Positions 45,966 through 59,365 of a stretch of 64,000 bases of DNA are shown piece after piece; within the stretch, counting starts at the first letter, position 1; each line of letters starts with the position of its first letter. The DNA is from Armatimonadota bacterium. GTDB lineage: Bacteria; Armatimonadota; SYMT01. The stretch is taken from contig JAWLHY010000002.1 of assembly GCA_041690135.1 (NCBI GenBank), positions 624,342 through 688,341 on the forward strand, in the 5' to 3' direction. Below the pieces are notes generated by a model. It did not search any database, was not told where the DNA came from, and saw only the letters and a program-made list of their open reading frames with translations. A program made the position numbers and the translations under genes.

Positions 45966-46274
45966 ATGCGACGACAGAAGGTTCGCATCCGGCTCAAGGC
46001 GTTCGATCACCAGATCATCGACCAGTCCGCCGGCAAAATCGTTGAAACGGCCCGCCGCACCGGCGCCCGGATCTCCGGACCCGTGCCGCTGCCCACAGAG
46101 AAGAACATCTTCTGCGTGAACCGCGGCCCGACCATCGACAAAGAATCGATGGAGCACTTTGAGATGCGCACGCACAAGCGGCTGATCGACATCCTGGACC
46201 CGGGTCCCAAGACGATCGACGCCTTGATGCGCCTCGACCTGCCGAGCGGGGTCGATATCGAAATCAAGCTGTAA
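45966..46274 (+). CDS. rpsJ: 30S ribosomal protein S10
   Basis: RIRLKAFDH...GPVPLPT...[11 protein letters not shown]. Confidence 0.99.
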
Positions 46275-46377
46275 GGGGACGCCGGGCGCCCCTGGGACAG
46301 CCGTTCCGGAGCGGTGGCAGTAGCTCGCGACTGCGGAGTGCCGCCCGGAAGGGCTGAGGACAGAGATAGAAGCAGCA

Positions 46378-47028
46378 ATGGTCAAGTCAATCCTGGGCAG
46401 GAAAGTAGGGATGACGCAGATCTTCGACGAGAAGGGACGCGTAGTCCCGGTCACGGTCGTTGAAGCGGGCCCCTGCATCGTCACCCAGAAGAAGACGATC
46501 GAGACCGACGGGTACGAGGCCATCCAGGTCGGCTATGGCGAGGCTAAGCCGTACGCCAAGGGCGCGAAGGGGCGCGGGCGGGCACGCCTGAACAAGCCGG
46601 AGCAGGGCCACCTGGAGAAGAACAGCCTGCCCGCGCGGCGGCACCTGCGGGAGATCCGCATGCCGGGCGTGGAGAACGTGAACGTCGGAGACGAGATCAA
46701 GGTCGACGTCTTCTCGGTCGGGGATCTGGTGGACGTGACCGGTACGTCCAAAGGAAAAGGTTTTGCGGGCGTCGTCAAGCGCTACCACTGGCACGGTGCC
46801 GACATGACGCACGGCTCCATGGTCCATCGTAAGCCGCAGTCGGCGGGTGCGACGGACGCCGCGCGCATCTTCAAGAACGTCGGTCGGCCCGGTCACATGG
46901 GGCACGAGCGGGTTACGGTCAAGCGTCTGCAGGTCGTCCGCGTGGACGGCGAGCGGGGCGTGATCCTGATCCGGGGCTCCGTGCCCGGCCCGAACGGCAC
47001 CCTCTTGACGATTAGGGAGGCCAAGTAA
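46378..47028 (+). CDS. rplC: 50S ribosomal protein L3
   Basis: [10 protein letters not shown]...[12 protein letters not shown]. Confidence 0.99.
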
Positions 47029-47029
47029 G

Positions 47030-47656
47030 ATGCCATCGGCACCACTCTACAGCGCGGCTGGTGAGCGCGTCGGCGAGCTGGAACTGGCGGAGACGATCTT
47101 CGGGCAGGCCGTCCGGGTCGACCTGGTGCACCAGGCCGTGGAACGGGAACTGTCGAACCGCCGCCAGGGCACGCACGATACGAAGAGCCGCCGCGAAGTT
47201 CGCGGCGGTGGTAGGAAGCCCTACCGCCAGAAGGGCACCGGTCGTGCCCGGCAGGGGAGCATTCGTGCCCCGCACTACCGCCACGGCGGCATCGTGCACG
47301 GGCCCACCCCGCGCGATCACGACAAGGATATGCCCCGCAAGATGCGGCGAGCGGCGTTCCGCAGCGCCCTTTCGGCCAAGGCGGCCGACGGCGGTATTCG
47401 CATTCTGGAAGGTCTGGAAGTTGCCGAGATCAGCACGAAGCAGTTCGCGCAGTGGCTCGGCCGGCTGGAACCGGGAGCGAAAGTCGTACTCGTCCTGTCC
47501 GAACGGAACGAGAACGCTGCGCTGTCGGCGCGCAACCTGCCGAACGTGAAGGTGATTGTTCTTCCCGGTCTTTCGACCTACGAAGTGGTGAAGAACGAGA
47601 CCCTGATCCTGACGCGGGATGCCGTCACGAAGATCGAGGAGCTCTACACGGCATGA
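47030..47656 (+). CDS. rplD: 50S ribosomal protein L4
   Basis: KPYRQKGTGRARQGSIR. Confidence 0.99.
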   Translation: MPSAPLYSAAGERVGELELAETIFGQAVRVDLVHQAVERELSNRRQGTHDTKSRREVRGGGRKPYRQKGTGRARQGSIRAPHYRHGGIVHGPTPRDHDKDMPRKMRRAAFRSALSAKAADGGIRILEGLEVAEISTKQFAQWLGRLEPGAKVVLVLSERNENAALSARNLPNVKVIVLPGLSTYEVVKNETLILTRDAVTKIEELYTA

Positions 47657-47955
47657 AAGACGCTACAGAAGTCATCGTTCGGCCGCTCCTTACGGAGAAG
47701 AGCACCCTCCTGCAGCGGCTGAACAAGTACACCTTCGAAGTGGCGAAAGACGCGACGAAGATCGAGATCCAGAAGGCCATCGAGCAACTGGGTCGCTGCG
47801 AGGTGGACAAGGTCAATACCCTGGTCGTGAAGGGGAAGGTCCGCCGCCGCGGTAACCGGGTCGGTCGCACCGCCGACTGGAAGAAGGCGGTCGTCACCCT
47901 GAAAGACGGGGAGTCCCTGGGCGGAGTCCTGGGGCAGGCTTACGAGAACCTCTAG
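47653..47955 (+). CDS. rplW: 50S ribosomal protein L23
   Basis: RPLLTEKS...KYTFEV...WKKAVVTL; ATGA overlap with rplD. Confidence 0.98.
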
Positions 47956-47957
47956 CC

Positions 47958-48788
47958 ATGGCTATTGAGAAATACAAACCGACTTCGGCCGGTCGTCGCT
48001 TCGGCTCGGTCTCCTCTTTCAAGGAGATCACCAAGGACGAGCCCGAGAAGTCCCTGCTCCGGCCGATCAAGAAGACCGGCGGCCGCAATCACCGCGGCGT
48101 GGTGACCTCGCGTCACCGCGGCGGTGGCAACAAGCGGCAGTACCGGGTGATCGACTTCAAGCGGGACAAGGAAGGCGTACCCGGCAAGGTCGCGTCGATC
48201 GAGTACGATCCCAACCGGTCCGCGCGCATCGCCCTGGTGGTTTACCGGGACGGCGAGAAGCGCTACATCCTCGCCCCGCAAGGGCTGCAGGTGGGCCAGG
48301 AGATCGTCTCCGCGGAAGCGGCGGACATCCGCGTGGGCAACGCGATGAAGCTCCGCAACATTCCCGTGGGCACGCAGATCCACGCCATCGAGCTCCAGCC
48401 GAACCGCGGCGCCCAGATGGTGCGCAGCGCCGGCACCGGCGCGCAGTTGATGGCGAAGGAAGGCAAGTACGCCCAGGTGCGCCTCCCTAGCGGGGAGACG
48501 CGCATGGTGCTGCTGGAGTGCCGCGCCACCATCGGTGTCGTCGGCAACAACGACCACGAGAACATTTCGCTCGGTAAGGCCGGACGAAAGCGTTACCTCG
48601 GGCAGCGGCCGCACGTCCGCGGTGTGACGATGAACCCGCGCGACCATCCCCACGGGGGTGGCGAGGGTAAAGCGCCCGTGGGTCGCAGCGGTCCCGTCAC
48701 TCCCTGGGGCAAGCCGGCTCTGGGCTACAAGACGCGGCGTAACAAGGCGACGGATAAGTTCATCGTCAAGCGGCGCGGCCAGCGGTAA
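47958..48788 (+). CDS. rplB: 50S ribosomal protein L2
   Basis: IEYDPNRSA...[13 protein letters not shown]. Confidence 0.99.
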
Positions 48789-48807
48789 CGCGTAGAGGGA
48801 TCAAGAG

Positions 48808-49095
48808 ATGGGCAGGTCACTGAAAAAGGGTCCCTATGCGGACCCCAAGCTGCTGGCGAAGATCGACGAGATGAACGACCGGGGCGAGAAGCGCATCATC
48901 AAGACGTGGTCTCGCCGGTCGACCATCTTCCCGAGCTTCATCGGCCATACGATCGCGGTGCACAACGGTAAAACCCACGTGCCCGTATTCGTCACGGAAA
49001 ACATGGTGGGCCACAAGCTCGGCGAGTTCGCCCTCACCCGCACCTACAAGGGTCACGCGGGCGGGCCTCGCGAGCGCTCCAGCGGGCTCCGGTAG
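48808..49095 (+). CDS. rpsS: 30S ribosomal protein S19
   Basis: RSLKKGP...KTWSRRS...GHKLGEF. Confidence 0.99.
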
Positions 49096-49121
49096 TCAAC
49101 GGTTAAGAGAGGCTAACGAAG

Positions 49122-49727
49122 ATGCCTGAGTATCTGGGAGGCCCCGGGCTCCGAAAGATCGTGCGCGCCGGCACGGATAAGGCGGCGTTCAAGCGCGTTT
49201 CGGTGCAGGCGGCGGGACAGGTGGCCGTGGTAACGGTTCACACGGTCAAGCCGGACGCACTGGAGCAGCGCCGCAACGCGGACCTCGTGCCCGGTTTGGA
49301 AAAGGCGCTCAAGAAGAGCGTCACGGTGCAGGTTCAGCCGGAAGCACAGGCCGTGCACAAGTTCGTGCGGGTATCGCCGACGAAGGCCCGGCGCATCATG
49401 GACGAGGTACGCGGAAAGTACGTGGACGAGGCGCTGGCGATTCTCCAGTTCCTTCCGAACCGTGCTGCTCGCTACGTCGCCAAGCTGATCCGCTCCGCGG
49501 CGGCCAACGCCTACGAGGGGTGGGGCGCCGACCCGGCCGAACTGAAGGTTGCCCTGCTGACGGCCGACCCCGGCCCGACGTGGAAGCGCATCCAGCCCCG
49601 CGCGATGGGACGGGCCTATCGAATTCTAAAGCGAACGGCTCACCTCACCGTGGCGGTGCAGGCTGCCGAGCCGCGCGCGACGAAGGGCGGTCGGCGGCGC
49701 GGTCGATCCGCGGTGACGCGGGCTTAG
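49122..49727 (+). CDS. rplV: 50S ribosomal protein L22 with an N-terminal S3-like KH-domain extension of about 73 aa
   Basis: L22 core [17 protein letters not shown]...[16 protein letters not shown] starts near residue 74; ATG 49122 has SD GAGAGG. Confidence 0.95.
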
Positions 49728-49743
49728 GCCGGCGGAGAAGACT

Positions 49744-50628
49744 ATGGGACAGAAAGTACATCCAATCGGATTCCGGATTGGGATCATCCGCGACTGGGAG
49801 AGCAACTGGTATGCCGACAAAGGCTACAGTGATCGCCTGTACGAGGATTACCAGATCCGGCGGTACCTGCGGAAGCGGCTCGCCAACGCCGCTATCTCGC
49901 GGGTGACGATCGATCGCCAGGCCGACAAGCTCCGCGTGGTCCTGCATACCGGCAAACCGGGCGTGATCATCGGTCGCGGCGGCCGCGGCGTCGACGAAGT
50001 CAAGGCGGATCTCGAGAAGAAGTTCGGCAAGCAGGTGAACCTGGTCGTCCAGGAGATCCGCCAGCCCGATCTCGACGCCCAGCTCGTCGCCGAGGCGATC
50101 GCTCAGCAGATCGAGAAGCGCGTTGCTCCCAAGCGCGCCATCCGGCAGGCGATCCAGCGCAGTGTGCGCATGGGCGCCAAGGGAATCAAGGTTCTCGTCT
50201 CCGGCCGCCTCGGCGGGGCTGAAATGGCGCGCAAGGAAGGGGACAAGACCGGAAAGATTCCGCTCCACACGCTGCGGGCGGACATCGACTACGGCTTTGC
50301 GGAAGCTCCCACCACCTATGGCAACATCGGGGTGAAGGTGTGGGTCTACCGCGGGGAGATCCTTCCGGATCAGCGCCGCCAGCAGAAGGAGCAGATGGCG
50401 CCCGAGCCGTTCATGCCGCGTCAGCCGCGCCGAGCGGAAGATCGCGATCGCGAGCGCGCCGGCGGTGGCCGCGGTGGTGATCGCGGGGACCGTGGTGGCG
50501 ACCGCGGTGGTCGTGGTCGTGGACCCGGCGGCGGTGGTGGTCGTGGACCTGGCGGTGGCGGTCGCGGTCCGGGGGGCGGCGGTGGTCGCGGACCTGCCGG
50601 TGGTGGTCGCGGACCCGGCAGACAGTAA
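49744..50628 (+). CDS. rpsC: 30S ribosomal protein S3 with RGG-rich C-terminal tail
   Basis: [11 protein letters not shown]...[12 protein letters not shown]; tail (GGRGPGGG)n. Confidence 0.99.
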
Positions 50629-50643
50629 ACGAGGGAACTACAG

Positions 50644-51132
50644 ATGTTAGCTCCGAAGCGAGTGAAGCACCGCAAGGTGCACCGGGGTTCGCTGGCCGGA
50701 CGCGCCAGTGGCAACACCGAAATCAACTTTGGGGAATATGCCCTGAAGGCGATGGGTCGGTGCTGGCTCACCAACAAGCAGATCGAAGCCGCTCGTATCG
50801 CCATGACGCGCCACATCCGGCGCGGCGGTAAGATCTGGATCCGCGTCTTCCCGGACAAGTCCTACACCAAGAAGCCGGCGGAAACCCGCATGGGCTCTGG
50901 CAAAGGCGCGCCGGAAGGCTGGGTCGCGGTGGTGAAGCCGGGCCGCATCCTCTTCGAGATGTCGGGAGTCGCGGAGCCGCTGGCGCGGGAAGCCATGCGC
51001 CGCGCGGCGCACAAGCTTCCGATCGAGACGAAGTTCATCGTGAAGGGTCGCGAGGAGGCGCTTCCTGCGCCGGTTGAAGCGGAGACGGACGTCGCCGCGG
51101 CAGCCGAGTCGACCGAGGCGGGTGAGGAATGA
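50644..51132 (+). CDS. rplP: 50S ribosomal protein L16
   Basis: QIEAAR...RMGSGKG; acidic tail. Confidence 0.99.
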
Positions 51133-51344
51133 AGAAGACGGAAGAAAACGAGCAGCTTCAATCCCTCGGCCTGGTTGAGCTGCAGCAGGAGCTGAGGCAG
51201 GCGCGTCAGGAGTTGTTCCAGAACCGCGTGCGCTACGCCACGCGAAACCTGGACAACCCGGAGCCGCTCCGCAAGGGTAAGAAGCGGATCGCGCGCATCC
51301 TCACGTATATCCGCCAGCGCGAGCTGGAAGAGTTGCAGGGATAA
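51129..51344 (+). CDS. rpmC: 50S ribosomal protein L29
   Basis: ELFQNR...KKRIARILT; position in the S10 operon. Confidence 0.95.
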
Positions 51345-51360
51345 GGCTGCGGTAACGCTT

Positions 51361-51645
51361 ATGTCGGAATTGGAAGCAGCGAGCACGAGCAGTGAGCGCG
51401 GACGACGCAAAGTCCGCCAGGGCCGGGTGGTCAGCGACAAGATGGACAAGACCGTCGTCGTGGCGGTGGAGTCGCGCATGAAACACCCGCTCTACGGGCG
51501 CATTGTGCGCCGTACCAAGAAATACAAGGCGCACGACGAGCAGAACGACTTCCACGTGGGCGATCTGGTGGAAATCACCGAATGCCGTCCCCTCAGCCGG
51601 GACAAGACGTGGCGCGTAAGCCGGCTCATCGAACGAGCGAAATAA
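51361..51645 (+). CDS. rpsQ: 30S ribosomal protein S17
   Basis: [14 protein letters not shown]...ECRPLS. Confidence 0.99.
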
Positions 51646-51761
51646 TCCCGCTGTTTCCGGCGGCGTTCGCTTGCCGGGCGGAAACCCTCCGGGGGATTCC
51701 GCCGGCCTGCGCGCGCGTAAGGAAACAAACGGGCTAGACGAATTCTGGAAGAGGTCAGGTT

Positions 51762-52127
51762 ATGGTCAGACCCTATACCAGGCTGCGGGTCGCGGATAAC
51801 TCCGGCGCGCGCGAACTCCTGTGCATCCGGGTGCTGAAGGGCAACAGCCACACGGCCGAAGTCGGCGATGTGATCATCGCCGCGGTCAAGGTGGCTACCC
51901 CCGGCGCGCAGGTGAAGAAAGGCGACGTCGTCCGGGCCGTGGTCGTTCGCACGCACTTTCCGATCCGGCGGCAGGACGGTTCGGTGCTGCGGTTCGACGA
52001 TAATGCAGCCGTCGTGATTCAGCCGAGCGGGGATCCCCGCGGCACTCGCATCTTTGGCCCCGTGGCCCGCGAGTTGCGCGACAAACAGTTTATGAGGATT
52101 ATCTCCCTCGCACCGGAGGTGCTGTGA
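51762..52127 (+). CDS. rplN: 50S ribosomal protein L14
   Basis: VADNSGA...FDDNAAV...GTRIFGPV...SLAPEVL. Confidence 0.99.
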
Positions 52128-52128
52128 G

Positions 52129-52500
52129 ATGGCACGGACGCAAAAGAGGCACGAAGCGGGCCAGTTCAAGGCCCACGTCCGCAAAGGGGATGAGGTCGTC
52201 GTGATCGCCGGCCGCAGCCTCGGGCAGCGCGGCCGCGTGATCAGTGTCGACCCCCAGCGCGAGCGGGCCGTGGTGGAAGGCGTGAACCTGGTGGTGAAGC
52301 ACCAGCGCCCCCAGGGCCAGCAGGGTGCCGCCCGGCAGCAGGGCGGTCGGGTGGAGAAGCCGGCCCCCATCCATGTGAGCAACCTCATGGTGGTGGATCC
52401 GGAGACGAACCAGCCCACGCGCGTGGCGCACAAGCTGGTGGATGGCAAGTGGGTCCGGGTGGCGAAGCGCTCCGGCGCGGCGCTGGATCGCACTGAGTAA
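52129..52500 (+). CDS. rplX: 50S ribosomal protein L24
   Basis: [10 protein letters not shown]...VEGVN...PIHVSN. Confidence 0.99.
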
Positions 52501-52517
52501 GGACGGAGTTTCCGAAG

Positions 52518-53072
52518 ATGCCACGCTTGAAAGATCGGTACCGGGGCGAAGTTGTTCCGGCGCTGATGAAAGAATTCTCGTATAAGAACGTCATGCAGGT
52601 GCCCCACCTCGACAAGGTGGTCATCAGCATGGGGGTTGGCACCGCCGTTCAGGATCCCAAGACGCTCGACGCGGCCGTGCGAGACATGACCGCCATCTCC
52701 GGCCAGAAGCCGGTGGTGACGCGGGCGAAGCGCTCCATTGCCGCGTTCAAGATCCGCGAAGGAATGCGGATCGGCTGCAAGGTGACCCTACGCGGTGACC
52801 GGATGTGGTACTTCCTGGACAAACTGTTCAACGTTGTGATGCCCCGTATCCGCGACTTCGGCGGGATCAATCCCGATTCGTTCGACGGACACGGCAATTT
52901 CGCAATGGGCCTGAAAGAGCAGTTGGTGTTCCCGGAGATCGAGTACGATTCGATCGACCGCATCCGGGGGATGGACATCATCATCGGCACCACGGCGAAG
53001 ACCGATCAGGAAGCACGCGCTCTGCTGCGGGCCCTGGGTCTACCGTTCCGGTCGGAGGCGCAGCGCCGTTAA
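52518..53072 (+). CDS. rplE: 50S ribosomal protein L5
   Basis: GQKPVVT...GCKVTLRG...PRIRDF. Confidence 0.99.
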
Positions 53073-53163
53073 GGCGTTTGCGCTTCCCTCGGGGCGGGAG
53101 CCCGACCCGAGAGACGTTCCCGATCGCTCCTAGCACCAATGACGTTGTAATGGAGGCGAAACT

Positions 53164-55197
53164 TTGAAGCGGTACAGCGGCGAGGCGTTGAGAAACGTGG
53201 CCCTGGCGGGTCACCAAGGGTCGGGTAAGACTACCCTGGCCGAGGCGATGCTGTACGTGACCGGGGCGATTGACCGCCTCGGCCGCGTCGAAGACGGCAC
53301 CGCGAAAACGGATTTCGATCCGGATGAAGTGCGGCGGCAGATCAGCATCAACCTGGCGCTTGCTCCCGTCGAGTGGAGCGGGCACAAGATCAACGTCATT
53401 GATACGCCGGGTTATCTGGACTTCGTCGGAGAGGTCGGGAGCGGGATGCGGGTGGCCGACGCCGCCGTACTGGTGGTGCCGGCGCCCTCCGGGGTGGAAG
53501 TGGGGGCGGAAGCGGCCTGGGAAATCGCGGGTGACCAGAAGCTTCCCCGGTTCATTTTCGTCAACAAGATGGACCGGGAGAATGCCGACTACGCGCGCGT
53601 GATGGAGTCGATCCGGGAACGCTTCGGCAACCGCTGTGTGCCGGTGCAAGTCCCCATCGGGCAGGAAGGCACCTTTTCCGGAGTGGTGGACGTGCTTCGG
53701 CAGGTCGCCTACACCGGACATGGGCGCGAATTGGTGCGGGGAGAAGTGCCCGATTCCTGCCGCGCGCTGGTGGACGAGTGCCGCGAGGCGCTGATGGAGA
53801 GCGCAGCCGAGGCCGACGACGAGTTGCTGGAAAAGTATCTCGGGGGCGAAGCCCTGTCGGACGAGGAGCTGTCGCGCGGCCTGGTGGCCGCCGTGAAGAA
53901 CGGCGGCGCCGTGCCCGTTCTTTTTGGCAGTGCCGGCGCGCTGATTGGCGTCCAGGCACTAATGGATGTGCTCATCGAAATGGCGCCGTCCCCTGCGGAA
54001 AAGGGAGCGGACGAGAGCGCGCCGTTGGAAGCGCTGGTGTTCAAGACGCTGAGTGATCCCTACGTGGGCAAGCTCACCTACTATCGGGTGTACTCCGGCG
54101 TTCTGAAGAGCGGAAGCGATGTCCATAACGCGACGCGGCAGCACGATGAGCGCATGGGACAGATTTTCGTGCTGCGCGGCAAGCAGCAGGAGATGGTTGG
54201 AGAGATACCGGCGGGTGACATTGGGGCGGTGGCGAAACTCGGGGTCACGGCGACGGGCGACACGCTCTGCGACCGGGGCCGCCATGATACGCTACCTGCC
54301 ATCGAGTTCCCGCAGCCGTCGTACAGCCGCGCCATCGTGGCGCAGAGCAAGGCGGATGAAGACAAGATGGGACCGGCGCTGACCCGGTTGGCGGAAGAGG
54401 ACCCCACGTTCCACTTCCATCGCGATCCGGAGACCGGCCAAACCGTGATCTCGGGCCAGGGGGACACCCACCTGGCGGTGGTCATCGAGCGCCTGAAGCG
54501 ATTCGGGGCGAATGTGCACGACGAGGAAGTGCGCATTCCTTACCGGGAGACGATTCAGGGAGTGGCGCGGGTTCAGGGCCGGCACAAAAAACAGACGGGG
54601 GGCCGCGGGCAGTTCGGCGATTGCTGGGTGAAGTTCGAGCCGCTCCCTCGGGGCGAGGGATACCGGTTCGTCGACGCCATCGTCGGCGGGGCGATTCCCC
54701 GGCAATACATCCCCGCAGTAGATAAGGGGCTGCAAGAAGCCATGGAACATGGTATTCTTGCCGGGTTCCGTGTGGTGGACGTCAAGGCGACGTGCGACGA
54801 CGGGTCCTTCCACGACGTCGATTCGTCCGAAATGGCCTTCAGGCAAGCGGCGCACCTGGCGTTCCGCGCAGGCATGGAGAAGGCCCGGCCCGTGCTCCTG
54901 GAGCCGGTGATGAACCTCGAAGTCACCGTGCCGGAGGAGAACATGGGCGACATCATCAGCGATCTGAACACGAAGCGGGGCCGCATCAGCGGCATGGAGC
55001 CGGTCGGCGATGGGAAGCAACTCATCCGCGCGACGGCGCCCATGTCCGAGCTTCAGCAGTATGCGATCGACCTCCGGTCGATCGCGCGCGGTCGAGGCCG
55101 GTTCCGGACCGAGTTCAGTCATTATGAGGAAGTGCCTGCGCACGTGGCGCAGCAGGTGATCGAGAACGTTAAGAGGGAACGCGAAGAGCATGGCTAA
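53164..55197 (+). CDS. Elongation factor G-like protein (EF-G2 type paralog)
   Basis: [14 protein letters not shown] in place of RGITI, DTPGY in place of DTPGH; full five-domain length. TTG start with SD GGAGG. Confidence 0.93.
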
Positions 55198-55375
55198 GCA
55201 GGCTTTGATTGAGAAGGCCAAGCGACCGCAGAAGTTCAAGGTGCGCCAGTACAATCGGTGCAACGTTTGCGGGCGCTCGCGGGGTTATTTCCGCAAGTTC
55301 GGTCTTTGTCGTATTTGTCTCCGTGAGATGGCGCTGCGGGGTCTCGTACCCGGCGTGACCAAATCGAGTTGGTAA
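55190..55375 (+). CDS. rpsN: 30S ribosomal protein S14 (type Z, Zn-binding)
   Basis: 61 aa, CNVC...CRIC. Confidence 0.98.
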
Positions 55376-55385
55376 GGGATCGACG

Positions 55386-55781
55386 ATGGTAACAGATCCG
55401 GTAGCAGACTTGTTGACCCGCATCCGCAATGCTTCGCGGGCGGGCCACGAGCAGGTAGAGATCCCCGGCTCGCGCCTCAAGCTGGGGGTTGTCAAGATTC
55501 TGGCGCAAGAAAAGTACATCCGCGGCTATCAGTTCATTCAGGATGGCAAGCAGGGCGTGATCCGCGTCTTCCTGAAATACGGCGCCAAGCGCGAGCCGGT
55601 GCTGAACCAGCTCGAGCGCGTGAGCAAGCCGGGCTTGCGGGTTTACGCCCCGGCCACTAAAATACCGCGGGTTTTGAACGGCATGGGGATCGCGATCCTG
55701 AGCACCAGCAAGGGGCTCCTGGTCGATCGCGACGCGCGACGCCAGCAGGTCGGCGGAGAAGTCCTCGCCTACGTCTGGTAG
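55386..55781 (+). CDS. rpsH: 30S ribosomal protein S8
   Basis: [13 protein letters not shown]...SKPGLRVY...GGEVL. Confidence 0.99.
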
Positions 55782-55855
55782 TTTCGCAGTTCCGTGAGCT
55801 GGTCGGCGCGTTATCCGCGGGGACCAGCTCACGAGCCCGAATGTGGAGTTGATAG

Positions 55856-56437
55856 ATGTCACGAATTGGAAACCAACCGATCGCCCTGCCGGCTGGCGTG
55901 GAGATCTCCCGGAACAACGGTCACCTGGTGGTTCAGGGGCCAAAAGGCTCGCTGGAGCGGCCCGTGCCGGGGAACATCCAGGTCGAAGTCGACGGCGGGC
56001 AGGTCCTGGTCACCCGTCCGGATGACGAGCAGCAGACGCGCGCCCTGCACGGGCTCACGCGTACCCTTGTCGCCAATATGGTCAAGGGGGTGACCGACGG
56101 ATATGAGAAGGTGCTCGACATCGTGGGCGTCGGCTTCCGCGCCGAGATGGTCGGGCAGGCGGTGCGCATGCAGTTGGGCTACTCGCACCTGGTCGAGGTG
56201 CATCCGCGGCCGGGCATCTCGTTCGAGGTGGGCCAGGAGACCAACACGCGCCAGTTTTTCCTGCGTATCAAGGGCATCGATAAGGAGACCGTCGGTCAGC
56301 AGGCCGCCGAAATCCGAAGCCTGAAGAAGCCGGAGCCGTACAAGGGCAAGGGCATCCGCTATCGTGGAGAGGCCGTGCGCCGGAAGGCAGGTAAGACTGC
56401 CAAGGGCGGCGGTAAAGGCGGCGGCAAGAAGAAGTAA
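55856..56437 (+). CDS. rplF: 50S ribosomal protein L6
   Basis: MSRIG...PEPYKGKGIRY. Confidence 0.99.
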   Translation: MSRIGNQPIALPAGVEISRNNGHLVVQGPKGSLERPVPGNIQVEVDGGQVLVTRPDDEQQTRALHGLTRTLVANMVKGVTDGYEKVLDIVGVGFRAEMVGQAVRMQLGYSHLVEVHPRPGISFEVGQETNTRQFFLRIKGIDKETVGQQAAEIRSLKKPEPYKGKGIRYRGEAVRRKAGKTAKGGGKGGGKKK

Positions 56438-56446
56438 GGAACACCG

Positions 56447-56806
56447 ATGCTACGCAAGTACGAATTGAGAAAGCGCCGCCACGTGCGCGTGCGCAAAAAG
56501 GTTAACGGCACCACGGCGCGCCCGAGGCTGTCGATCTTCCGGAGCGAGCATCACATCTACGCTCAGGTGATTGACGACACGCTTGGCCGCACCCTGGCCG
56601 CGGCCTCGAGCATGGACAAGGAACTCCGCGGCAAGGTCGGCTACGGCGGCAACGTCGAGGCGGCGAAGCAGGTGGGACAGCTCGTGGCGGAGCGCGCCAA
56701 GGCTGCGGGGGTCGAGAAGGTCGTCTTCGACCGGGGTGGTTTCAACTACCACGGCCGTGTGGCCGCGCTGGCGGATGCCGCTCGCGCCGGCGGACTGGAA
56801 TTCTAG
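56447..56806 (+). CDS. rplR: 50S ribosomal protein L18
   Basis: RPRLSIFRS...FDRGG..YHGRV. Confidence 0.99.
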
Positions 56807-56810
56807 AATT

Positions 56811-57368
56811 ATGCGACGTATCGATCCGAACACGCTCGAGCTTCAGGAGCGGGTGATCAAGACGAACAAGTGCCAGAAGACGCACAAGGGCGGCCGGACT
56901 TTGAGCTGGAATGCCCTCGTCGTCGTAGGCGACGGCCACGGCCATGTGGGTGTGGCGATGGGTAAGGCGCGCGGTATCCCGGATGCGATCCGGAAGGGTG
57001 TCGAAGCGGCGAAGAAGGTCATCATCGAGGTGCCGCTCGACGGGACGACCATTCCGCATCCGATCCTGATTTCCTCCGGCGCGGCGAAGGTACTTCTCAA
57101 GCCGGCGTCTCCCGGCACCGGAGTGGTGGCGGGCGGCTCCGTGCGCGCCGTATTGGAAGCGGCGGGAGTGCGCGACGTCCTGGCGAAGTCCCTGGGATCG
57201 TCCAACGCCATCAACTGCGCCTGGGCGACCATCGAAGCGCTCAAGTCGCTGCGCACTCCGGAAGAAGTTGCGGCGGCGCGCGGGGTGGAGCTTTCCCAGC
57301 TTCCGGTGCGACGGCAGGCCAGCGCCACGCATACGCCGGCGTCGATGGAGGAGACCGCCAATGCCTAA
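56811..57368 (+). CDS. rpsE: 30S ribosomal protein S5
   Basis: KGGR...[11 protein letters not shown]...[12 protein letters not shown]; start ATG 56811. Confidence 0.98.
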
Positions 57369-57561
57369 GATCAGGGTCACGCTGGTCCGCAGCACGATCG
57401 GTGCTCCGGGACCCCAGCGCCGTACCGTCGAGGGCCTGGGCCTGCGGCGTCTGAATCAAAGCGTCGTCCACAACGCGAACCTGCAGATCCTCGGAATGGT
57501 TCGTAAGGTGACGCATCTCGTCCGCGTCGAGGAAGTCACGGAAGAAGCCGAAGCGAAATGA
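57361..57561 (+). CDS. rpmD: 50S ribosomal protein L30
   Basis: [11 protein letters not shown]...LGLRRL...[10 protein letters not shown]. Confidence 0.97.
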
Positions 57562-57998
57562 GACTGGAAGATCTGAAGCCGAACCCCGGCGCCAAGCACC
57601 GCCCGAAGCGAGTGGGTCGCGGCATCGGGAGCGGTCACGGGAAAACATCCACCCGCGGCCACAAGGGTCAGTATGCGCGGAACACCGTTCGCCCCGGCTT
57701 CGAGGGTGGGCAGACCCCGCTGCATCGGCGCCTGCCGCGGTACCGCGGGTTCAACAACCTGTTTGCGAAAGAATACGCCATCGTCAACCTGTCCCAGTTG
57801 GACAAGTTCGAGGCGGGCACCGTCATCACGCCGGAACTGCTCCTGGAAAAGGGAGTGATCCACGACGTGAAGAGCGGTGTGAAGATCCTGGGCGACGGCG
57901 AGCTGACCAAGAGTTTCACCGTGCACGCCCATAAGTTCAGTAAGAGCGCCGTCGAGAAGCTCCAGGCCAAGGGCGGCGCCGCGGAGGTTATCGGCTGA
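57558..57998 (+). CDS. rplO: 50S ribosomal protein L15
   Basis: [13 protein letters not shown]...GFEGGQTPL. Confidence 0.99.
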
Positions 57999-59365
57999 TG
58001 CTTCGGAACTTGATGACGGCGTGGAGCATTCCCGAAGTCCGCGCACGGATGCTGTATGTGGTGGGCATGATCATGGTTTTCGTGGTCGGTCTCCACATAC
58101 CCGTGCCGGGGGTCAATTTGCGCGCGCTCGAGGAGCTGATCCGCCAACTGCCAATCCTGACGCTCTTCGATACCTTTTCGGGCAGCGCCTTCCGGCGGTT
58201 CACGATCTTTGCCCTCGGCATCACGCCGTACATCAACGCTTCGATCATCATGCAGTTGCTGACGGTGGCGGTGCCCCAGCTTGAGGCGATGTCCAAAGAG
58301 GGGGAGAGCGGGCGGAAGCGGATCGCGCAGATCACCCGCTACCTCACCGTCGGCCTGGCGCTTTTCCAGGCGATCGGCCTCGTGACGATGCTGTCGAACC
58401 AGAGCGGCCAGACCGGAGCTCCCATCTTCAGTGGCGGATGGCTGACCATCGTGCAGGTGGTGATTTCCCTCACTGCGGGAACCACCTTCCTGATGTGGTT
58501 GGGTGAGTCGATTACGGAGAAGGGCATCGGGCAGGGCGTCAGCCTGATGATCTTCATGGGGATCATGGCACGCCTGCCGTATGATGTCCGGCTCACGGCC
58601 ACGGCTCTCCAGGGCGCCCAGGCCGGCGTGGCGATCTTCCAGTTGTTGATGCTGTTCGTGCTGTTCCTGGCGACCGTGGTGGGAATTATCTACGTCACCG
58701 GCGGCACGCGACGGATTCCCATCCAGCACGCGAAGCGCCAGATGGGGAACCGGATGGTGCAGCCGCAGAGCAGCTTCCTGCCGTTCAAGGTGAACACCGC
58801 GGGCGTGATGCCGATCATCTTTGCGATTTCGCTTCTGATGTTCCCGGCTACGCTCGCCTCCTTCGTGAATAACCCTTCGAATCCGGGACCGTTGACGAAC
58901 TTCGCACGGTTCGTGATCGATTGGACCACTCCGGGTCAGAATCACTTCGCTTCGCTCTTGTATGCGGTACTGATCGTCCTGTTCACGTACTTCTATGCGG
59001 CCATCGCGGTGAACATCCCGGAGCTGACGGACAACCTGAAGAAGTACGGCTCATTTATTCCGGGTATCCGGCCGGGGCGACCCACGCAGGAGTACCTGGA
59101 CCGGGTGTTGACCCGAATCACCTTTGCCGGAGCCATCTTCCTGGCGGTGATCGGCCTGGTGCAGTACTACATCCCAATGCTCACGGGAATTGCTACCTTC
59201 ACTCTGGTGGGGGGAACTTCACTGCTCATCGTGGTGGGCGTGGCGTTGGATACGATGCAGAACCTGGAGTCGCACCTCGTGATGCGCAACTACGAGGGCT
59301 TCATCCGGCAGTCGTCTCGACGGCGGGGCGGAGCCACCGGTCTCGGCGGCGTGAGTCTTCGGTAG
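57998..59365 (+). CDS. secY: Preprotein translocase subunit SecY
   Basis: FALGITPYINASII, WLGE.ITEKGIG, GVMPIIFA, IPGIRPG, GGTSLLIVVGV. Confidence 0.99.
   Translation: MLRNLMTAWSIPEVRARMLYVVGMIMVFVVGLHIPVPGVNLRALEELIRQLPILTLFDTFSGSAFRRFTIFALGITPYINASIIMQLLTVAVPQLEAMSKEGESGRKRIAQITRYLTVGLALFQAIGLVTMLSNQSGQTGAPIFSGGWLTIVQVVISLTAGTTFLMWLGESITEKGIGQGVSLMIFMGIMARLPYDVRLTATALQGAQAGVAIFQLLMLFVLFLATVVGIIYVTGGTRRIPIQHAKRQMGNRMVQPQSSFLPFKVNTAGVMPIIFAISLLMFPATLASFVNNPSNPGPLTNFARFVIDWTTPGQNHFASLLYAVLIVLFTYFYAAIAVNIPELTDNLKKYGSFIPGIRPGRPTQEYLDRVLTRITFAGAIFLAVIGLVQYYIPMLTGIATFTLVGGTSLLIVVGVALDTMQNLESHLVMRNYEGFIRQSSRRRGGATGLGGVSLR

Follow-up and report, generated by a model that had tools for sequence, protein, structure and literature searches.

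The ribosomal protein L22 (uL22) of an Armatimonadota bacterium begins with a 73-residue extension which, on the sequence comparisons reported here, is a diverged paralogue of the KH domain of the small-subunit protein uS3, the likeness between the two being far beyond chance. The explanation that we consider likely for the observations taken together is that of a two-domain uL22, in which an S3-derived, basic KH-like domain devoid of the GxxG loop would sit permanently on the surface of the 50S subunit. Core ribosomal proteins of bacteria are usually treated as invariant in their domain make-up, the known lineage-specific changes being mostly tails, loops and whole extra proteins. The case described here appears to be one of a complete folded domain copied between two universal ribosomal proteins, from uS3 of the 30S subunit to uL22 of the 50S subunit.

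Genomic context and gene layout

The window (the whole stretch of 64,000 nucleotides that was analysed) is part of contig C2 of an Armatimonadota genome (G000; 9.1 Mb in 25 contigs, 97% complete) and contains an S10-spc ribosomal protein operon at positions 45966-59365. The rplV gene is located between rpsS and rpsC of the S10 operon, a gene position in keeping with the assignment of its product to uL22, and its ATG is separated by 26 nt from the stop codon of rpsS (TAG, 49093-49095). The Pfam family Ribosomal_L22 (PF00237) covers residues 77-179 of the 201-aa product (E 4.5e-34, 117.2 bits versus a cut-off of 28, model positions 1-103 out of 104), and is thus preceded by an N-terminal part of 73-76 aa. 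The coordinates of the relevant features are collected in Table 1.

Table 1. Features of the rpsS-rplV-rpsC region of the window and the evidence for each
Feature	Position	Strand	Evidence or remark
rpsS (S19)	48808..49095	+	ORF list, sequence; directly 5' of L22 in all related loci
SD-like GAGAGG	49107..49112	+	Read from the sequence; 9 nt upstream of the ATG
rplV, ATG start of the long form	49122..49124	+	ATG at the homologous position in 6/6 close loci (L001-L006)
rplV (L22), 201 aa	49122..49727	+	ORF list and Pfam Ribosomal_L22
N-terminal extension of L22 (residues 1-73), KH-like, predicted type II topology	49122..49340	+	Profiles, predicted fold
In-frame GTG (codon 69), alternative start, not favoured	49326..49328	+	No GGAG-type SD upstream
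Canonical uL22 part (residues 74-201) with short basic tail and stop codon	49341..49727	+	PF00237, AlphaFold2
rpsC (S3)	49744..50628	+	Pfam KH_2 (38-109) and S3_C (119-201); sole rpsC in the genome
KH segment of S3 (residues 35-103) matching the extension, GxxG intact (GRGGRG)	49846..50052	+	hhalign, BLASTP

A search of the six-frame ORFs of the genome with the L22 core returned one phmmer match, i.e. a single rplV, and rpsC is likewise present in a single copy. Because rplV is single-copy, every 50S subunit of this organism would be expected to carry the extension.

Homology of the extension to the KH domain of uS3

An earlier note on this DNA, made from the sequence alone, had aligned the extension by eye with the KH domain of the adjacent S3. 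Both sequences quoted there are correct, and the alignment was reproduced exactly by BLASTP, which pairs residues 10-72 of the extension (query residues 1-73) with residues 38-103 of S3 at 19 identical positions out of 66 (29%), with a single 3-residue gap at the position of the GxxG loop. With a score of 22.3 bits (E 0.001 for a single comparison), this pairwise result is marginal when taken alone, and family profiles were therefore employed.

An HMM of 41 non-redundant extension sequences, searched against 126,850 six-frame ORFs (at least 40 aa each) of the genome, matched S3 (residues ~35-102) with an E-value of 1.3e-5; this was the sole non-self match below E 0.1, the next one having E 0.64. 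In the reverse search, an HMM of the KH segment from 41 Armatimonadota S3 proteins recovered the extension (E 2.2e-4) as its sole non-self match at E<10. By profile methods, the extension and uS3 are each other's best match, with significant E-values. An hhalign comparison of the extension alignment (48 sequences) with the alignment of the S3 N-terminal part gave a probability of 97.1% and a P-value of 5.5e-11, equating extension residues 7-72 with S3 residues 35-103. The same query reached at most 0.6% with the controls, for which the C-domain of S3, the core of L22 and S19 were taken.

The same picture emerged from larger collections. Among 177,635 PDB sequences, the top 43 matches of the extension profile were all uS3 from many bacteria (best E 2.7e-6), located at chain residues ~38-103; all 40 sequences with E ≤ 0.01 were uS3, and the first unrelated protein appeared at E 0.16. 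None of the best 60 PDB matches was a uL22 chain, and in this respect no solved ribosome covers the extension. In a set of 1.84 billion representatives clustered at 50% identity, 28 matches with E ≤ 1e-3 were obtained: 12 with L22-like lengths or fragments, 5 multi-stretch repetitive proteins, and 11 matched in a single stretch at residues ~38-103, of which the 4 tested against Pfam carry KH_2. (Among the former 12, P0130 was identified as L22 by Pfam, P0053, P0090 and P0095 were known from the L22 search, and the rest were classified by eye.) Four of the repetitive matches (P0132, P0134, P0135 and P0139), which contain repeats of SRCR, Cna_B and other kinds, were discarded as spurious, as was P0136, which matched in six stretches and has no Pfam family.

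The extension profile was also applied to 216 genomes of the phylum that lack the fusion, where its best six-frame match had E-values from 2e-9 to 1e-3; in a sample of 20 such matches, 19 were identified as S3 by BLAST and the 20th by reading the sequence. A single-sequence tblastn search had already given this S3 pattern. It also produced weak matches (E 0.02-0.2) to two ORFs of 439 aa (L013, in G017:C170) and 311 aa (L020, in G021:C41) that are not S3; the extension HMM does not match either of them at E<1.

General searches did not recover the domain: no Pfam family matched residues 1-73 alone at E ≤ 10, KH_2 matched none of 17 extension sequences at that threshold (nor the one from the window), and an ESM Atlas search with residues 1-73 gave no usable match. 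The failure of KH_2 reflects the limited sensitivity of comparing single sequences with a general model and does not speak against homology. The expectation of the earlier note that profile searches would show KH similarity thus held for the family profiles and failed for Pfam KH_2 on the 17 single sequences, while its central claim, that L22 carries a degenerate, fused copy of the KH domain of S3, was supported by the reciprocal profiles, by hhalign with its controls, by the PDB sequences and by the predicted fold (see below).

Predicted fold of the two-domain protein

AlphaFold2 modelling of full-length L22 (with an alignment of 31 sequences) yielded a pLDDT of 89.7 and a pTM of 0.78, the blocks of the extension scoring 86-95. 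The elements of the model are a strand at residues 3-5, a helix at 8-17, strands at 25-31 and 34-41, helices at 44-49 and 55-63, and a strand at 66-82, and their predicted order (alpha-beta-beta-alpha-alpha-beta) is that of the type II KH topology, albeit as a prediction only. The last strand runs continuously from the extension into the first strand of L22. Translation from the ATG at 49122 would give a KH-like domain of 73 residues and then, with no linker, a normal uL22 fold, the former being held rigidly in the model on the globular head of the latter through this one shared beta-strand. The modelled L22 core itself is a globular alpha/beta domain with the long beta-hairpin (strands 141-159 and 165-181) of the uL22 fold and superimposes on solved uL22 chains with Z 12-18 (best rmsd 1.1-1.3 Å over 109-115 residues). 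When the extension was folded alone (17 sequences), the confidence was moderate (pLDDT 67, pTM 0.46), and the same elements were obtained except that the two central helices merged into one (residues 44-63).

Structural comparisons revealed a likeness to solved type II KH domains. A Foldseek search with the extension-only model listed 49 rows, 47 of which belong to ribosomes or to Rps3 (TMq 0.56-0.76, probability 0.99-1.00). The lowest E-value was 1.4e-3, no row reaching 1e-3, and 14 chains were the same as those named uS3 in the PDB sequence search. When the full model was compared with 48,161 chains by VIA-align, uL22 took ranks 1-27; next came, for residues ~2-74, 2cy1 (Z 7.8), uS3 (Z 7.6) and the KH domain of human S3 (1wh9, Z 6.9), followed at overall Z 5.0-6.7 by archaeal S3, CPSF-KH, NusA (5.9), Der, Era (5.3) and KhpB. 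According to the tool's own warning, Z-scores below 8 may reflect a merely common arrangement of elements. Since values of 5-8 are not decisive by themselves, the fold is assigned from the agreement between sequence, topology and the composition of the hit lists.

That the resemblance to S3 might be convergent or accidental, the extension being an unrelated small alpha/beta domain (e.g. one formed de novo from spacer sequence), appears highly improbable to us. These Z-scores, the low pairwise identity, the failure of KH_2 and the empty Atlas search would all be compatible with such an origin, yet it would leave unexplained why extension and S3 are each other's unique genome-wide matches, why the hhalign P-value is so low with clean controls, why 40/40 PDB sequences with E ≤ 0.01 are uS3 from many phyla, and why both domains have the same order of secondary structure and a common HTxKP turn (in 48/48 extensions).

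The donor might also have been another KH_2 protein (Era, KhpA/B, NusA or a Der-like protein) contributing its own type II KH domain. The fold search does return NusA, Der, Era, KhpB and the archaeal CPSF KH (Z 5.0-6.5), and the two weakly matching non-S3 ORFs could be quoted in the same sense, but both fold searches place S3 ahead of these KH domains, and the gene adjoins rpsC. Moreover, the extension HMM finds no KH protein besides S3 in the genome at E<10 and does not match those two ORFs at E<1, and no KH protein other than S3 occurs among the best 60 PDB matches or the 4 Pfam-tested single-stretch matches. We regard this source as very unlikely and retain S3 as the relative from which the domain would have been derived.

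Loss of the GxxG loop and retained motifs

The earlier note had stated that the RNA-binding GxxG loop is lost. The loop has indeed degenerated and been shortened by 3 residues: no GxxG occurs within 22 residues after the HTxKP turn in 47/48 extensions, whereas it is present in 38/41 S3 sequences. In this feature, a GxxG loop between the central helices, the extension departs from type II KH domains. Many extensions of family f1 have 'RRGAD' where S3 has 'GRGGRGVD', and the former looks like a relic of the latter. Given the loss of the loop, canonical KH-type binding of single-stranded RNA is not expected. The KH core is otherwise predicted to be kept, including a turn of the form [H/Y/F/R/L][T/S]x[K/R/N]P that is present in 48/48 extensions and common to S3 (HTGKPG). 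The extension is also basic, with a pI of 9.5-10.7 in 11/12 sampled sequences.

Translation start and coding status

Several observations argue that the extension is translated. The earlier note had credited the ATG at 49122 with a good SD, and the SD-like GAGAGG is found there (9 nt upstream); it had also named, as the event that would remove the extension from the protein, initiation at an internal GTG. The data favour the ATG, which is conserved in 6/6 close loci, whereas the relatives do not consistently have a start codon where the GTG stands (codon 69). In the loci of family f29, stop codons are often found 3-8 codons upstream of the ATG, and in most of them this ATG is the only listed start with 60 or more residues ahead of the L22 core. 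Counted by codon position, the differences between family-1/2 genes (15 pairs) number 327/253/561 for the extension, against 337/231/696 for the core, with 304 and 483 synonymous codon changes, respectively, and a GC3 of 0.82 in both. The extension evolves faster than the core, yet as a protein and with a coding pattern.

We consider it barely credible, in view of these data, that the extension is not made, i.e. that translation starts at the GTG at 49326 or nearby and that 49122-49325 is a long open spacer between rpsS and rplV. An in-frame GTG does exist at that position, and six database gene calls (P0069, P0071, P0072, P0074, P0083 and P0084) start inside the extension. Against such a spacer stand, besides the SD-like GAGAGG preceding the conserved ATG and the preponderance of third-position changes, the conservation of the extension as a protein over four families, its confident folding together with L22, and the tight packing of the operon, where a non-coding gap of 230 nt would be exceptional.

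The six public calls begin 33-36 residues inside the extension and 37-40 residues before the core. Annotation of the start is inconsistent in this L22 family (calls of 168 aa and 203 aa are both found in NCBI), and Pfam misses the domain.

Distribution and conservation

When 401 Armatimonadota genomes were searched with a profile of 12 sequences, 38 of them had an L22 with the extension (E ≤ 7e-16), namely 5/7 genomes of f1 (including G000), 1/1 of f2, 3/3 of f8 and 29/29 of f29; the two f1 genomes that gave no match are 80% and 69% complete. A clear score gap separates this class from the next matches, which start at E 2.3e-9. Across the four families the extension is conserved as a protein down to ~25% identity and has been kept under purifying selection.

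Among the best 120 L22 relatives in a collection of 5.8 billion proteins, 87 have an extension detectable by BLAST, 20 have an extension of 75-84 aa with the same pattern, and 13 have none. In the group of 87 the extension mostly comprises exactly 73 residues, with seven proteins beginning 33-36 residues in or at residue 14. A search with one f29 extension as the query gave 2 loci, one from an 'uncultured Armatimonadetes' MAG and one from a 'Capsulimonadaceae bacterium' MAG, the latter encoding S19, a 268-aa L22 with the extension and then S3.

The domain appears to be rare and was found only on L22 in these searches: in the 1.84 billion representatives, the 13 proteins at E ≤ 1e-10 are the 12 of L22-like length or fragments and one repeat protein of 1636 aa. 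A stand-alone form of the domain was considered and dismissed, the short matches P0126, P0127, P0128 and P0131 being read as truncated or frameshifted L22 genes.

At the other end of the protein, the L22 sequences of family f29 (L024-L044, P0093-P0120) have C-terminal tails of about 15-120 residues that are rich in Ala, Pro and Glu. The segment 'EATPVTASDAPE' is conserved in several of these tails, and 'EGE' forms the end of many.

Origin of the fusion

Three groups of extensions can be distinguished, all with the shortened loop and the same junction, in which the last KH strand is followed by P or A and then by 'EA', the residues that normally follow the start Met of L22. The groups match each other with E-values of 1e-16 to 1e-28, versus 1e-9 at best for S3. 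A single fusion event would be the simplest reading of these features. A tree of S19, the L22 core and S3 (39 rows, 422 columns; the duplicates L021 and L022 were left out, as were L013, L020 and L031, which lack genes) supports clades f1+f2, f8 and f29 and gives no support for the backbone, and as such is compatible with one origin, with or without later losses, as well as with several.

An old partial duplication of rpsC, as put forward in the earlier note, can reasonably be inferred from the finding that S3 comes out as the nearest relative in every case. In such an ancient event at the rplV-rpsC boundary, which is the most likely origin, S3 codons ~35-103 would have been set in frame before the start of L22, possibly through a tandem duplication of rplV plus the 5' portion of rpsC and a subsequent deletion that left the present order. 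S3 proteins of the own phylum (28-39 bits) score no higher than Bacillus-type S3 (31 bits), and the extension, with ~65 strongly diverged columns, is too short for a phylogeny of the donor. With the duplication granted, the fusion would provide a dated example of a ribosomal protein gaining a domain by duplication within its operon.

Possible place and role on the ribosome

uL22 has its globular head on the solvent side of the ribosome near the tunnel exit, and the surface near the exit serves nascent-chain processing and targeting factors in model bacteria. By virtue of the place of uL22, the extension would be positioned at the solvent side near the exit as a permanent, basic (pI ~10) domain of the 50S surface. 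There, non-canonical surfaces of the domain would probably make contact with 23S rRNA or with neighbouring proteins, and the domain, if ordered, would probably alter the docking surface for the factors that act on nascent chains. It probably adds a new surface knob to the ribosome.

A further proposal, that the uS3 KH domain grafted on uL22 has given part of the phylum an additional ordered domain next to the exit, where it alters the docking of nascent-chain factors or makes a new contact with rRNA or mRNA, is in our estimate rather doubtful. If true, it would amount to a remodelling of the bacterial ribosome by domain transfer between subunits, with consequences for co-translational processing.

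Factors that assemble the ribosome repeatedly contain type II KH or KH-like domains. With Era, Der and KhpB among the fold matches and with the basic character of the extension, one could therefore suppose that the S3-derived domain serves mainly in assembly of the 50S subunit (as a chaperone or placeholder) or in feedback binding of the operon mRNA. We deem such a main role quite unlikely, as the GxxG required for canonical RNA binding is degenerate in nearly all extensions and the rigid and confidently predicted junction (pTM 0.78, strand 66-82) would suit a permanent domain better than a flexible one. A permanent surface domain of the 50S subunit is the role we prefer.

Two correlates of such a domain were looked for. 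Compensation for a lost neighbour was rejected, as bL32 and bL17 are present in the genome and ORFs of the size of uL23, uL29 and uL24 are found in the window. A co-evolving element of 23S rRNA was sought in 4 bearers of the extension (f8/f29) versus 5 extension-less genomes, a small comparison (no 23S gene is assembled in G000 or in 5 f1/f2 genomes) which revealed no indel of at least 4 nt exclusive to the bearers.

Relation to known systems

By every sequence and fold test, the nearest known relative is the KH domain of uS3 (KH_2, PF07650), with which the extension shares the order of helices and strands, the HTxKP turn, the basic character and an alpha/beta domain that follows directly. Unlike its counterpart in uS3, it resides on a large-subunit protein without S3 residues 1-34 and the S3 C-domain, has a GxxG loop that is 3 residues shorter with its glycines lost, and falls below detection by Pfam KH_2.

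The predicted fold also resembles the KH domains at the C-terminus of Der/EngA (6xrs_A, Z 5.7) and in Era (1ega_A, Z 5.3). The KH-like domain of Der has no GxxG and still contacts the ribosome. By analogy, we propose that the extension may work as the Der domain does, contacting the ribosome without GxxG. On the other hand, it has no detectable sequence relation to the Der and Era domains, which belong to free assembly factors and are not parts of structural ribosomal proteins.

Other additions to uL22 include the N-terminal extension of mitoribosomal uL22m and the C-terminal tail of actinobacterial uL22. Like these and their chloroplast counterpart, the extension described here would enlarge the surface of the ribosome. 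In solved organellar uL22 chains, as aligned by VIA-align, the core begins at residue 61-360. For the chloroplasts of Caryophyllales, a published account describes a C-terminal extension of uL22c that, together with extensions of uL13c and bL21c, forms a domain adjacent to the exit tunnel. In contrast to the present case, these other extensions are not reported as KH domains or as copies of a domain of another ribosomal protein; the extension here is, in addition, N-terminal and occurs in free-living bacteria. Lineage-specific extensions of ribosomal proteins are thus known as such, and what is unusual is the source, a KH domain of a universal protein of the other subunit. In the open full-text literature that was searched, neither a uL22 with a KH domain nor such a feature of Armatimonadota L22 is described; the supplements of surveys may list the lengths.

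Additional observations

Several features of the same genomes deserve mention in their own right. The 23S rRNA gene of an extension-less genome of family f22 (L074, G143:C1:727176-730589) contains an insertion of 430 nt near alignment position 1920 that is absent from the other eight sequences compared, and may be an intervening sequence or an intron. Isolated matches of 83-98 nt to positions ~1071-1170 of the bacterial LSU rRNA model were found in G000 (C4:52623-52705, minus strand; L067) and in G183 (C1:1204286-1204383). They score 54-55 bits, above the cut-off, lie away from any rRNA gene, and may represent an rRNA-mimic regulatory element.

Within the operon of the window, S3 ends in a Gly/Arg-rich repeat tail of ~65 residues (GGRGP-type; 50425-50625, plus strand), and the S3 proteins of relatives have still longer Gly-rich tails, exemplified by an ORF of >425 aa in L060. 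The spc part of the operon includes a gene for a 677-aa EF-G-like protein (53164-55197, plus strand) between rplE (52518..53072) and rpsN (55190..55375); the product has the GTP_EFTU domain, EF-G domain 2 and domains III, IV and C, and its location is an unusual place for an EF-G paralogue.
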